From Clostridiales bacterium (GTDB taxonomy: Bacteria > Bacillota > Clostridia > Oscillospirales > CAG-272), in the NCBI GenBank assembly GCA_022791195.1, contig JAAVYP010000007.1, forward strand, positions 2,215 to 66,214: 64,000 nucleotides of DNA, given 5' to 3'. The translations under genes and the position numbers were made by a program. The notes beneath the pieces were generated by a model. The model saw nothing but the letters and a program-made list of their open reading frames with translations. It ran no database searches and was not told where the DNA came from. Below, in pieces: positions 28,066 to 30,985 of this stretch (positions within the stretch are counted from its first letter, which is position 1; the number at the start of each line of letters is the position of its first letter).

Positions 28066-28125
28066 TCGATTTCCTTGAACAACTGCGCAAGCAAAGCACC
28101 AGAACACGCAAAACGCGTGATCTGG

Positions 28126-28155
28126 CTGTCAGGATCACTATTTTTTAGTAAAAAA
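28126..28155 (+). terminator. intrinsic terminator after the MATE-like gene
   Basis: GTGATCT ggctgtca GGATCAC followed by TATTTTTT. Confidence 0.5.
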
Positions 28156-28200
28156 GAAAGATTGACTATAAATTCAAAAACTTTAAATAATGGAGATAAA

Positions 28201-29541
28201 ATGATGGAGAAAAAAACAAAATTTTCAAGCCGTTTAGGATTCGTCCTTGCGGCAGCAGGCTCAGCAGTGGGACTGGGCAATATCTGGCGATTCCCCTACC
28301 TTGCGGCAAAATACGGCGGCGGCATTTTCTTGCTGGTGTATCTTATTCTTGCGGTCACCTTCGGATTTTCACTGATGGTAACTGAAATTGCAATCGGCAG
28401 AAAAACAGGTAAAAGCGCCATTAAAGCGTATAAAATGATCAACAAGAAATTCTCATTCTTAGGTTATTTAGCTGCCCTTGTGCCCATTATCATTTTCCCT
28501 TACTACTGTGTTATCGGCGGATGGGTCGTGAAATTTTTGGGCGTGTATTTATCCGGACAAGGCCATATAGCAACAGGTGCGGATTACTTCTCGGGATTTA
28601 TCGGAAGCACGGCAGAGCCTCTTCTTTGCCTCGCGATTTTTCTCGTAATCACTTCGCTGGTAGTCATTATGGGCGTTCAAAAGGGGATTGAAAAGGTGAG
28701 CAAAATTCTGATGCCTTTGCTTATTTTGATGTCACTGGGAACGGCGCTTTATAGTCTTACCATAGACGGTGCGATCGATGGTCTCATTTACTATATCAAA
28801 CCTAATTTCAGTGAATTTTCAATAAAAACCGTGGTGGCGGCTATGGGGCAGCTTTTCTACTCCATGTCGCTTGCGATGGGAATTATGGTCACTTATGGAT
28901 CGTACATGAGAAAGGACGATGACCTTGAAAAATCGGTGAGAAACATTGAAATTTTTGACACGGGTATTGCGTTTTTGTCAGGGCTTATGATCGTTCCTGC
29001 GGTGTTTGCATTCTCTGGCGGCAATAAAGACGCCTTGCAGGCAGGCCCTACACTGATGTTTATCACGCTTCCCAATGTTTTTGATTCCATGAAAGGCGGA
29101 CACATTTTCGGACTTGTGTTTTTCCTGCTGGTTCTCTTCGCGGCGCTTACATCAGCAATTTCCCTGATGGAAACCATCGTATCGATTGTAAGCGATAAAT
29201 TTGGATTTTCAAGGGTCAAAATCTGTATTGGTGTTATGATTGCAGCGTTTATGATAGCCGTTCCGTCCTCACTGGGCTTTGGGGTATTATCGGGAATTAC
29301 CATTTTCGGATATTCGATACTTGACTTCTTTGACTTTATCAGCAACAACATTTTGATGCCGATCGTTGCCATGATTACGGCTGCGCTAATCGGCTTTGCC
29401 GCCAAGCCCGACTACATTTCCGAAGAAGTGAAAGCATCGGGAAAATTTAAGTCCGAGAAATTGTACAGGGTTATGATAAAATATGTAGTGCCTGTTTGTA
29501 TGGTGGTTATTCTGATCTCCTCACTGGTGGGATACGTTTAA
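28201..29541 (+). CDS. sodium-dependent transporter, SNF (neurotransmitter:sodium symporter) family
   Basis: The GLGNIWRFPYLAAKYGGG signature is present. ATG 28201 (MMEKKTKFSSRLGF), after GGAG, is preferred to the track start 28075. Confidence 0.88.
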   Translation: MMEKKTKFSSRLGFVLAAAGSAVGLGNIWRFPYLAAKYGGGIFLLVYLILAVTFGFSLMVTEIAIGRKTGKSAIKAYKMINKKFSFLGYLAALVPIIIFPYYCVIGGWVVKFLGVYLSGQGHIATGADYFSGFIGSTAEPLLCLAIFLVITSLVVIMGVQKGIEKVSKILMPLLILMSLGTALYSLTIDGAIDGLIYYIKPNFSEFSIKTVVAAMGQLFYSMSLAMGIMVTYGSYMRKDDDLEKSVRNIEIFDTGIAFLSGLMIVPAVFAFSGGNKDALQAGPTLMFITLPNVFDSMKGGHIFGLVFFLLVLFAALTSAISLMETIVSIVSDKFGFSRVKICIGVMIAAFMIAVPSSLGFGVLSGITIFGYSILDFFDFISNNILMPIVAMITAALIGFAAKPDYISEEVKASGKFKSEKLYRVMIKYVVPVCMVVILISSLVGYV

Positions 29542-29612
29542 TTAGGACATAATCATCTTGTTCGTTGTCATAAGATACGATTCTGCAACATATGACAGTG
29601 TTTTGCTCTCTC

Positions 29613-29642
29613 TTGACAAACAAACAAAACGTGTGCTATAAT
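29613..29642 (+). promoter_or_regulatory. sigA promoter of the tyrA leader
   Basis: TTGACA (29613-29618), an 18-nt spacer ending TGc, then TATAAT (29637-29642). Confidence 0.7.
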
Positions 29643-29673
29643 CATTTTATTCTATGAATAGGAATTTTGAAAA

Positions 29674-29733
29674 ATGGTTGATTTTGCAGTAAATTTATAC
29701 GCTTATTATTACTATTACTTAATTAAAAAGTAA
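29674..29733 (+). CDS. candidate Tyr-rich attenuation leader peptide MVDFAVNLYAYYYYYLIKK
   Basis: ATG 29674 with AGGA ~11 nt upstream. Codons 29704-29718 are TAT TAT TAC TAT TAC, and the stop is TAA 29731-29733. It lies between the promoter and a terminator just upstream of tyrA. Too short for the ORF track. Confidence 0.6.
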   Translation: MVDFAVNLYAYYYYYLIKK

Positions 29734-29770
29734 TAGTGATTTTTGCTGCATTTAGATGAATTTGATTTCG

Positions 29771-29808
29771 AGTCCCGCAGTTCAAATCACTGCGGGACTT
29801 TTATTTTT
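29771..29808 (+). terminator. attenuator terminator 19 nt upstream of the tyrA start
   Basis: AGTCCCGCAG ttcaaatca CTGCGGGACT (10-bp stem) followed by TTTATTTTT. An upstream segment, 29736-29749, can pair with 29777-29790 as an antiterminator. Confidence 0.75.
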
Positions 29809-29826
29809 GCAAAGAGGTGATAAAAC

Positions 29827-30657
29827 ATGGTTATTGGTATTGTAGGATTGGGATTAATCGGTGGTTCGTTGGCAAAAGCATCAAAAAAATATGGCGATTA
29901 CACTGTATATGCATACGATATTCAAGAAACATCGTTACACAAAGCGCTGGAGGACGGCGCTATCGACGATCAGTTGACCGAAAAAAACATTTCTGAATGC
30001 GATTATATTTTCATTTCGCTCTACCCCAAAGCAGTCATTGAATTTGTCGAAAAACATGCCGCGCTTTTTCAAAAAGATTCGGTCATCATTGACTGTGCCG
30101 GGGTTAAAAGAAGCGTATGCGAGCCCTGTTTTCGTATAGCGGATCAACATGGTTTCACTTTCATCGGCGGCCATCCTATGGCCGGCACACAGTTTTCCGG
30201 TTATGAACACGCAAAAGACACCATGTTTTGGAACGCCCCTTTTGTGCTGACGCCTAAACAAAACGAAGATGTACTCGTTTTAGCACAGGCCAGAGAGGTA
30301 ATCATTTCGCTTGGCTTTGGTCGGGTCTCGGTTATGACGCCTGAGCGGCACGACAAACTGATTGCATTTACTTCGCAATTAGCTCATGTTGTTTCAAACG
30401 CCTATGTTAAAAGTCCCAGTGCACCTGAACGCAAAGGCATTTCGGCCGGCAGCTATAAAGATCTAACCCGCGTGGCCTATCTGAACGAAACGATGTGGGC
30501 CGAACTTTTTTTAGACAATCGCGATCATTTAACCGCAGAAATCGATCATTTGATTACGGAACTGCAAAAATACAGCGAGGCGATGAAAACAAATGATTTT
30601 GAAACGCTGCGCGAACTCTTAAAAGAAGGAAAAATGGCCAAAGAGCAGGCGGATTAA
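29827..30657 (+). CDS. tyrA: prephenate dehydrogenase
   Basis: 276 aa with the Rossmann motif IGIVGLGLIGGSLA and the GGHPMAG motif. Confidence 0.9.
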   Translation: MVIGIVGLGLIGGSLAKASKKYGDYTVYAYDIQETSLHKALEDGAIDDQLTEKNISECDYIFISLYPKAVIEFVEKHAALFQKDSVIIDCAGVKRSVCEPCFRIADQHGFTFIGGHPMAGTQFSGYEHAKDTMFWNAPFVLTPKQNEDVLVLAQAREVIISLGFGRVSVMTPERHDKLIAFTSQLAHVVSNAYVKSPSAPERKGISAGSYKDLTRVAYLNETMWAELFLDNRDHLTAEIDHLITELQKYSEAMKTNDFETLRELLKEGKMAKEQAD

Positions 30658-30728
30658 TCCCCTGTCTCTACATGCACATATTCAATTGATAATTTCACTT
30701 GTAAAGATATGATTGACATGGTAAAATA

Positions 30729-30751
30729 AAAGCAAATCAAAGATTTGCTTT
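30729..30751 (+). terminator. hairpin after tyrA (weak U-tract); a second GC hairpin lies at 30784-30799
   Basis: AAAGCAAATC aaa GATTTGCTTT. Further on, GCCGG ccaaaa CCGGC is followed by ACTGTTAAATTTT. Confidence 0.4.
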
Positions 30752-30844
30752 GAAAATTTAACAGATCATGCAGGTGCACGATCTGCCGGCCAAAACCGGC
30801 ACTGTTAAATTTTAAAGTTGTGGAAATTTTGTGATATGATAAGA

Positions 30845-30985
30845 GCAAAATGATGAAAAGAGGTGAAACATGTATGGAAGCCGGCACGAGCGGCAACGAT
30901 AACAGCGGGCAGCAAAAATCCGGCCTTCCATGCAAGGCCGTGATTGTTGTTCCCGCCTGAAACAATTTTTCAGGAGGAAGTAAAC
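30845..30985 (+). promoter_or_regulatory. structured 5' leader of mgtE with an RBS-sequestering hairpin (riboswitch-like; not a clear M-box)
   Basis: A TGATATGAT extended -10 sits at 30830-30838. A long stem ATGGAAGCCGG / CCGGcCTTCCAT spans 30872-30930, with a competing hairpin CGGCCTT/AAGGCCG. CCTGAAA caatt TTTCAGG (30956-30974) occludes the AGGAGG RBS, and ATTGTT (30943-30948) can pair with AACAAT (30961-30966) as an anti-sequestor. Confidence 0.4.

Follow-up and report, generated by a model that had tools for sequence, protein, structure and literature searches.

In a 64,000-nucleotide (nt) stretch of DNA from an uncultured Clostridiales bacterium of gut or rumen (contig JAAVYP010000007.1 of assembly GCA_022791195.1; this whole stretch is called the window below), the gene tyrA is preceded by a short leader with a run of tyrosine codons and a terminator. 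An earlier reading of the letters alone (the original prediction) had proposed that translation of this leader decides between an antiterminator and the terminator. Having followed this up by comparison with related sequences, we conclude that the element is probably a ribosome-mediated (leader-peptide) transcription attenuator that senses the charging of tyrosine tRNA (Tyr-tRNA) and controls tyrA, and we put the probability of this reading at roughly 0.8. It is carried by the parts found in the sequence, their conservation, the reading frame of the leader peptide, covariation in the paired regions and the energetics of three competing pairings.

A Tyr-rich leader between a promoter and a terminator

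The leader and tyrA are arranged as follows:

29613..29642, + strand: sigma-70/SigA-type promoter, with TTGACA at 29613-18, an 18-nt spacer and an extended -10 element TGcTATAAT (TATAAT at 29637-42)
29660..29663, + strand: Shine-Dalgarno sequence AGGA of the leader open reading frame (ORF), 10 nt 5' of its ATG
29674..29733, + strand: leader ORF, 19 codons and a TAA stop, peptide MVDFAVNLYAYYYYYLIKK
29698..29718, + strand: regulatory Tyr codons and proposed stall site, with TAC at 29698-700 and TAT TAT TAC TAT TAC at 29704-718
29770..29808, + strand: intrinsic terminator (3:4), with a stem of 12 base pairs (bp; 29770-81/29789-800), loop at 29782-88 and T-tract TTTTATTTTT
29813-19, + strand: Shine-Dalgarno sequence AGAGGTG of tyrA
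29827..30657, + strand: tyrA, prephenate/arogenate dehydrogenase, 276 amino acids (Pfam PDH_N 1.6e-29, PDH_C 2.8e-16)

The promoter, which had been described as near-consensus, was present at the predicted place and matched the consensus at 12 of 12 positions; it has a TG ahead of the -10 hexamer, and it was the top match in the 3 kb scanned. Transcription would start near 29649-50. The 19-codon Tyr-rich ORF and its run of five Tyr codons (29704-29718) were likewise found as proposed. Six of seven codons in this part of the ORF, ahead of tyrA, specify Tyr, and YYYYY was the sole run of at least four Tyr residues in the six frames of the 64-kb window. The TAA of the leader is followed in frame by TAG and TGA, giving three tandem stops (29731-29739) that all lie within the RNA segment termed segment 2 below. 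Several relatives end the leader ORF with a tandem TAA TAA.

The terminator itself held up: its stem has 12 bp (7 of these pairs are G-C, and the loop has 7 nt), and its T-tract ends at 29808, 18 nt 5' of the tyrA ATG. The first two T residues of TTTTATTTTT double as the final two bases of the stem. Homologues of tyrA carry the name prephenate/arogenate dehydrogenase, and the gene is monocistronic in the window. The 163-nt leader folded at -46.9 kcal/mol, compared with -26.4 +/- 3.6 kcal/mol for shuffled versions (z = -5.7), and 0 of 200 shuffles were as stable. A scan of the window for other attenuator-like terminators ahead of genes gave none that was convincing.

Three competing pairings in the leader RNA

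Three further segments of the leader are defined by how they can pair:

29685..29720, + strand: segment 1, consisting of TGCAGTAAA (29685-93) plus ATTACTATTACTT (29708-20) from the Tyr codons; it supplies the 5' strand in the 1:2 protector hairpin
29728..29750, + strand: segment 2, with the 20-nt core GTAATAGTGATTTTTGCTGC (29730-49), 2 nt added 5' and 1 nt added 3'
29777..29790, + strand: segment 3, the terminator apex GCAGTTCAAATCAC, which runs from the upper 5' arm across the loop into the 3' arm and takes in the first 2 nt there

Folding to minimum free energy brings the Tyr codons into pairing with GTAATAGTGAT shortly downstream. The protector hairpin formed in this way, which pairs the Tyr codons with 29728-29740 and was absent from the original prediction, consists of ATTACTATTACTT (29708-20) paired with AAGTAATAGTGAT (29728-40) and of TGCAGTAAA (29685-93) paired with TTTGCTGCA (29742-50), the second helix including TGCAG 29685-89 : CTGCA 29746-50. 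The antiterminator pairing of 29736-49 with 29777-90, which had been foreseen, exists as 7 bp (GTGATTT 29736-42 with AAATCAC 29784-90) plus 5 bp (GCTGC 29745-49 with GCAGT 29777-81). Segment 2 has a choice of partners, segment 1 in the protector and the terminator apex in the antiterminator, and with these alternatives the leader reproduces in full the four-segment design of the trp, his and phe attenuators. The terminator hairpin by itself folded at -20.4 kcal/mol.

The positions of stop and stall site also fit the trp/his/pheA-type geometry that had been suggested. The stop codon (29731-33) lies inside segment 2, and the final Tyr codon lies 11 nt 5' of this segment. We modeled the effect of a ribosome with masked folds, in which the RNA was cut just before the 3' arm of the terminator and masked through 12 nt past the A site; for this geometry a ribosome footprint extending ~12-13 nt 3' of the A site was assumed. 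With the ribosome on the Tyr codons of the window the 2:3 helix formed at -13.5 kcal/mol, compared with -6.5 kcal/mol when the ribosome was placed at the stop codon. A corresponding difference between stalled and stop masks (-11 to -15 versus -4 to -12 kcal/mol for 2:3) was seen in the 6 sequences, out of 12 in the close set described below, that this truncated model covered. When full-length RNA was masked the terminator was always kept, so the choice between the structures must be kinetic.

The steps that would convert these pairings into regulation, namely ribosome stalling, the relative timing of ribosome and polymerase, termination at the hairpin and a response to tyrosine, we infer as follows. 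Transcription would start near 29650 at the consensus promoter, and a ribosome would load on the 19-codon leader. When Tyr-tRNA is plentiful, this ribosome would reach the stop codon at 29731-33 and cover GTAATAGTGATTT, and segment 2 could then not pair with the apex. With segment 2 masked, the 12-bp terminator would form and transcription would end near 29806, yielding a leader RNA of ~155 nt. When Tyr-tRNA is scarce, the ribosome would stall on 29704-18 and melt the 1:2 protector, and segment 2 (29730-49) would stay free to pair with GCAGT...AAATCAC (29777-90) once this had been transcribed; the top of the terminator would then be occupied, and polymerase would read through into tyrA. If the leader were not translated at all, the very stable 1:2 hairpin would sequester segment 2 and the terminator would form.

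In L152, L154, L160, L161, L162 and L164 the spacer between segment 2 and the terminator holds a small hairpin, ATATCGTTTGATAT, with variants such as TATCGTACGATA. In the untranslated fold, bases of this spacer hairpin pair instead with the region of the leader start codon (AACGAT:ATCGTT), and judging from these complementary sequences the protector structure may also hide the leader start site.

Conservation ahead of tyrA in close relatives

Tyr-run ORFs before tyrA orthologues, for which the original prediction had suggested looking, were found in 12 distinct relatives. The close set used for comparison comprises at least 12 distinct leaders before tyrA, with TyrA proteins 67-94% identical to that of the window; the closest TyrA record (94% identity) belongs to a metagenome-assembled genome. 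Examples of leader peptides in this set are MICFAVNLDTYYCYYLTKK, MFNFAAIYYYYYYFQR, MTNSFAVSYHYYYYYLEN, MKRNFAATYYYYYYFG and MKTLFAVTYYYYYCFV.

All 12 close leaders have an in-frame ATG with AGGA, GGAG or GAGG 7-10 nt 5' of it, and all retain a TTGACA / TGnTAnAAT promoter at the equivalent place. Every one of the 12 has 4-6 Tyr codons in the run and a leader stop 2-4 codons past the run, at the edge of segment 2. The terminator is present across the close set, and segment 2 is nearly invariant there, as it nearly is throughout the wider family described below. The distance from ATG to run was 24, 27 or 30 nt; insertions and deletions in this interval come only in multiples of three, which means that the frame has been kept.

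The Tyr frame was the only frame with an ATG in all 12 sequences. Read one base earlier (29703-29720), the Tyr run of the window becomes six Leu codons (TTA TTA TTA CTA TTA CTT), and a -1 slip on the Tyr run would lead into this Leu frame. We rejected a Leu reading of the leader (LLLLLL, -1 frame), the start codon being absent in 11 of the 12 sequences; this distribution of start codons suggests that translation probably never initiates within the Leu frame.

Single Cys codons break or end the Tyr run (YYCYY, YYYYYC) in four relatives (L001, L004, L161, L162). These odd codons can be understood because no non-synonymous change other than TAC to TGC preserves base pairing with segment 2 (A-U becomes G.U), and from this pattern RNA structure seems to limit which codon changes are tolerated. 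Together with the Tyr-codon stretch and segment 2 being almost invariant as nucleotides, this tolerance of precisely the pairing-preserving changes would be expected if the same hairpins were flipped without translation by a trans-acting factor (a TRAP-like tyrosine-responsive protein, uncharged tRNA or a small molecule), with the Tyr run kept solely as a strand of the 1:2 helix. A constraint at the RNA level could by itself account for much of the conservation. It does not lead one to expect a conserved ATG and Shine-Dalgarno sequence, a Tyr frame that alone is open in 12 of 12 leaders, insertions and deletions solely in multiples of three, or, in the clade with tyrA by itself, a stop that invariably falls at segment 2 or immediately 5' of it. 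Known switches of this kind were also looked for. At gathering thresholds Rfam returned one tRNA only in the whole window, and no T-box. The T-box model (RF00230) matched neither 29500-29900 at E <= 10 nor any of 20 related tyrA loci, in keeping with the absence of a T-box claimed before, and a scan of these 20 loci with Rfam, including its riboswitch models, matched no family. TRAP-type spaced GAG/UAG triplet repeats were absent from the leader. We therefore regard a switch that works without translation as unlikely, though it is the chief rival to attenuation, and a further point on it follows from the wider family.

The close set bears equally on the proposal that the hairpin serves to end transcription of the transporter gene upstream, or acts as an insulator or as a terminator that is always on, next to a Tyr-rich ORF that arose by chance or as low-complexity sequence. 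There is indeed no other + strand terminator from the end of the transporter gene (29541) to the hairpin, and TATTATTACTATTAC is a near-repeat that could arise through replication slippage. Set against this are the consensus promoter between the upstream gene and the leader, and the persistence of leader and terminator with tyrA despite differing upstream and downstream genes (one extra gene upstream in L001, unrelated genes in L004 and L149). In addition, the unit is conserved with covariation in the 12 close relatives and in ~17 more distant leaders, and unless termination were conditional, a strong terminator placed 18 nt 5' of a biosynthetic gene that has its own promoter would shut the gene off. 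In our judgment a mere terminator is a very improbable explanation.

Covariation supports the protector and terminator helices

Pairs in the close set were counted on an anchor-based manual alignment of the 12 leaders. The lower stem of the terminator was 100% canonical, with four pair types next to the apex, two or three at the five positions below and two, one of them G.U, at the seventh. The Tyr-codon helix (P1) has 13 contiguous pairs, also 100% canonical, and at its six variable positions all changes are from A-U to G.U. For the antiterminator, the cores GUGA:UCAC and CUGC:GCAG were canonical in 12 of 12, with wobble changes at four positions. The apex loop was conserved though the stem beneath it had diverged, and shuffled loops matched the observed pairing energy in 0.002-0.13 of trials. 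Energies in the 12 leaders ranged from -16 to -21 kcal/mol for 1:2, from -12 to -20 for 3:4 and from -11 to -16 for 2:3, a calculated hierarchy of the kind that is typical of attenuators.

A second alignment (A3) covered 29 leaders; it was produced by nhmmer from sequence and not fitted to structure, with sparse columns dropped and gaps treated as N. The terminated conformation was 91.4% paired in this alignment, compared with 83.0 +/- 0.7% after shuffling, and had 16 pairs changing on both sides, compared with 9.0 +/- 1.4; none of 500 shuffles reached either value. Its covariation score was 0.256 versus 0.131, and slid controls were at most 58.5% paired. Of the 12 terminator pairs, 10 show changes in both partners across the wider family. 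One column pair of the codon helix (51:77) is A-U in 17 sequences and U-A in 8, because a switch from Tyr UAU to Phe UUU is compensated by a U-to-A change in segment 2. Similarly, a TAC-to-TCC change in L098 is matched by GUA to GGA in segment 2.

For the antiterminator, the same alignment gave 88.2% pairing versus 84.4% after shuffling (0 of 500 shuffles) and a covariation score of 0.125 versus 0.095 (3 of 500). Its pairing was also followed sequence by sequence: 2:3 duplexes reached -13 to -18.6 kcal/mol in 25 of 26 leaders, L083 being the outlier at -6.6 kcal/mol. In a swap test, segment 2 of three divergent leaders paired with its own apex at -14.9 (L133, GAAAUU), -16.8 (L081, GCGAUU) and -15.3 kcal/mol (L098, GCGCUU), compared with an average of -9.3 kcal/mol when divergent segment 2 was combined with canonical apexes. 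Canonical segment 2 with divergent apexes likewise gave -9.3 kcal/mol, and canonical segment 2 sequences combined with one another's apexes gave -13.1 kcal/mol. Altogether, support is strong for the 1:2 and 3:4 pairings and moderate for 2:3.

The window element belongs to a wider family of aromatic leaders

A profile built with nhmmer from 12 close leaders, the window included, was searched against 167 sequences and then iterated. The window matched the 12-leader profile at 5.9e-22 and the iterated profile at 7.3e-19, and 43 of the 167 sources were matched after iteration. The notion that the leader is confined to loci with a TyrA at least 67% identical to that of the window was overturned by this search, which found homologues ~1.1 kb upstream of tyrA, past a gene for 3-deoxy-D-arabino-heptulosonate 7-phosphate (DAHP) synthase. 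The original picture of a lone element thus had to be widened to that of a family, while its interpretation as an attenuator gained support. The intervening gene encodes a type I-beta DAHP synthase with a ferredoxin-like regulatory domain (Pfam PF00793, PF18152). The family profile consists of a GCAG anchor, a block of aromatic codons, segment 2 (GTAA[T/A]AGTGATTTnTGCTGC) and the terminator apex, and the window matches it.

Leaders with mixed runs before DAHP synthase-tyrA were located at:

L005, 1788-1946
L069, 223-396
L011, 1655-1815
L133, 289-440
L081, 300-442
~12 further loci

These distant leaders retain the GCAG anchor, segment 2 and the terminator apex, and their peptides mix Tyr with Phe and sometimes Trp (for example MNHIVFAISYFYFYFYFAKATEK, MKTLVAAFSYFYFYFWYINP, MLDLFAANFYYYYYFFEAKR and MFGSIFASAYYYFYYYYAE). 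In six of them (L005, L006, L007, L024, L094, L098) the leader ORF extends through segment 2 before stopping. More aromatic upstream ORFs were seen before DAHP synthase-tyrA operons, beyond the reach of the profile. Residue counts within a core of nine were 4-6 Tyr, 0-1 Phe and zero Trp for leaders before tyrA alone, and 3-7 Tyr, 1-6 Phe and 0-1 Trp for those before DAHP synthase-tyrA. The regulatory codons thus appear to track the regulated genes, being purely Tyr before tyrA alone and mixed Tyr/Phe before DAHP synthase-tyrA, and as far as sequence comparison can tell the window element is a Tyr-only specialisation of a wider aromatic (Tyr/Phe, sometimes Trp) leader family in uncultured Clostridia.

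This relation adds a point against a switch without translation, as the amino acids of the run match the products of the pathway and shift with operon content, each shift needing compensation in segment 2. It also bears on whether the short ORF could instead encode a Tyr-rich micropeptide that is itself functional, perhaps as a signal or in modified form, with the RNA pairings being incidental. The ORF is conserved and, judging from its conserved start region and frame, probably translated, and some leader peptides such as peTrpL are described as acting in trans (PMC7298713). The residues at both the N- and the C-terminus vary freely, though, and the conserved 'FA' motif falls on the GCAG nucleotides that the RNA pairing requires; in relatives Phe or Trp takes the place of Tyr as operon content changes, and there are no linked modifying or export genes. 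We consider a micropeptide the least probable of the explanations discussed here.

A bolder reading is that the window holds the first Tyr-specific classical attenuator, within an undescribed and widespread family of aromatic leaders in Clostridia whose codon content changed from a Tyr/Phe(/Trp) mixture to pure Tyr as tyrA became separated from DAHP synthase, each switch being compensated in the partner strand. We give this fuller claim even odds.

Points that weigh against the attenuator reading

Several observations weigh against attenuation at tyrA, or limit how far it can be taken. The antiterminator is 5-8 kcal/mol weaker than the terminator and would thus have to win kinetically. Of the terminator it engages no more than the upper portion, with 5 nt at the top of the 5' arm, the loop and 2 nt on the 3' side, and so leaves the 7-bp lower stem formally free. 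Coexistence of this lower stem with the antiterminator would require a pseudoknot across an 11-bp helix with a 3-nt linker, which we judge to be sterically excluded, and it is on this steric argument that the mutual exclusivity of antiterminator and terminator is based. Covariation in the antiterminator is modest: four pairs of the 29-leader alignment changed on both sides, a number equalled by 25 of 500 shuffles, in part because the helix shifts register in some lineages. Among the 12 closest leaders, all changes in 1:2 and 2:3 were one-sided transitions from A-U to G.U. The spacing of 10 nt between AGGA and ATG in the window is slightly long.

The phylogenetic distribution brings further caveats. 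A sister group (L003, L158, L159; TyrA ~70% identical) is without the leader, and its promoter abuts tyrA. All members with tyrA alone form one clade, which makes the link between Tyr-only codons and tyrA alone one evolutionary event and not a statistical trend. All members of the family come from uncultured genomes or metagenomes. In the sister group, repeated ATCGA-type half-sites occur just upstream of tyrA (ATCGAAAACATCGATAA ... ATCGATTATTGACA; ~1500-1670 in L003, ~2300-2500 in L158/L159), and these may be the operator of a protein regulator that replaced the attenuator.

Finally, work on Bacillus subtilis reportedly argues that polymerase outruns the ribosomes, which, if general, would disfavor ribosome-coupled attenuation. 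Because classical attenuation requires the ribosome to keep pace with polymerase, conservation of a four-segment attenuator among Clostridia is relevant to the debate about transcription-translation coupling in Firmicutes. If our reading is true, the family would be evidence for ribosome-polymerase coordination of attenuation grade in these Firmicutes.

The family would then also be a natural record of how attenuator specificity evolves, in effect a natural experiment in which codon identity, and hence the amino acid sensed, shifts with operon content and is compensated in the paired RNA strand. The list of amino acids sensed via leader peptides would grow by tyrosine. Conceptually this is a moderate surprise, the mechanism itself being textbook. 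The regulatory family ahead of DAHP synthase-tyrA operons, apparently unannotated and present in many Clostridia of gut and rumen, would aid annotation, provide the basis of an Rfam entry and inform metabolic models of the aromatic amino-acid supply in gut communities.

Genomic neighborhood of the leader

Just upstream of the leader, at 28075-29541, lies a gene for a transporter of the sodium:neurotransmitter symporter family (Pfam SNF, 4.8e-62), a family that includes bacterial tyrosine and tryptophan transporters. There is no + strand terminator between this gene and the tyrA promoter, and in L001 an extra gene stands between transporter and leader. Downstream, the region between tyrA and mgtE (30686-30944) contains a terminator-like hairpin on the - strand (30729-30751) and promoter-like sites, and a G+C-rich palindromic hairpin (30921-30940) abuts the mgtE start; the Rfam scan of the window gave no M-box riboswitch before mgtE.

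In relatives L160-L166, ~250-300 nt upstream of the leader, we found a common stretch TTCAGTTTTCAGGGTATATG followed by a terminator-like hairpin, and five contigs (L156, L157, L160, L161, L166) end within ~430 nt upstream of tyrA. The shared stretch and the contig ends near tyrA together suggest that a repeat or multi-copy element there breaks assemblies.

Comparison with known systems

Among known RNA families, the models for the His, Trp and Phe leaders gave no match at E <= 10 in 29500-29900. Thr_leader (RF00506) aligned end to end with both hairpins at 32.3 bits, below its gathering score of 55, which indicates a like architecture and not homology or membership, and Leu_leader (RF00512) scored 19.3 bits against a gathering score of 50.

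The claim of novelty made before has to be narrowed. A Tyr leader before tyrA, or an aromatic leader family in Clostridia, was not described in the searchable literature, with subscription-only papers outside its reach, and this part of the claim stands. Leader-peptide attenuation in Firmicutes, in contrast, is already known: His leaders have been reported in the Bacillus cereus group, Peptostreptococcaceae and Erysipelotrichales (PMC2965389, PMC9413887) and branched-chain amino-acid leaders in Staphylococcus aureus and Listeria (PMC5794164, PMC5864092). The phylum by itself is thus not the novelty. These systems use the same mechanism in the same phylum, where they too stand in for the more usual T-box, and differ in amino acid, genes and lineages; none of these four reports mentions a tyrosine or aromatic leader in Clostridia. 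They demonstrate that Gram-positive bacteria can use ribosome-mediated attenuation.

Tyrosine genes were assigned to T-boxes or TyrR, and not to attenuators, in a comparative paper of 2005 (PMC1262725), and predicted attenuators before tyrA operons appear in a generic list (PMC1173090). Like the proposed attenuator, a Tyr T-box (RF00230) turns on tyrosine biosynthesis genes in response to uncharged tRNA-Tyr by deciding between terminator and antiterminator; it differs in binding the uncharged tRNA directly, with no need for translation.

Two known leaders are closer to the branch of the family that precedes DAHP synthase. The aroR leader of Corynebacterium glutamicum, with the codons Phe-Tyr-Phe, controls the aroF (DAHP synthase) operon by ribosome-mediated attenuation and is reported to respond to Phe and not to Tyr (Neshat et al. 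2014, as summarised in PMC11802643); in the searchable literature it was the one aromatic leader described from Gram-positive bacteria. As described there, it resembles the aroF-tyrA branch in that aromatic codons control DAHP synthase, and it differs, in a comparison made by description, in being actinobacterial and in having three aromatic codons, whereas the window has a pure run of 5-6 Tyr before tyrA alone. The uORFC-13-1 motif before aroF in Acholeplasma has a U run coding at least one Phe and then a terminator (PMC8632094). Like the family, it is a candidate upstream ORF with Phe before DAHP synthase in a Firmicute-related lineage; unlike it, the motif is restricted to Acholeplasma, with no Tyr run or tyrA link reported.

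The nearest counterparts in design are the Escherichia coli attenuators pheL-pheA, trpL-trp and hisL-his, as captured in the Yanofsky model. As in these, the window has a promoter-proximal short ORF with a run of codons for the end product, the alternative pairings 1:2, 2:3 and 3:4, regulatory codons within segment 1, a terminator just before the structural gene, and a stop codon placed such that a terminating ribosome masks segment 2. It differs from them in the amino acid proposed to be sensed, tyrosine, in its clostridial rather than proteobacterial host, in the lack of sequence homology and in an antiterminator that targets the terminator apex and not the whole 5' arm.

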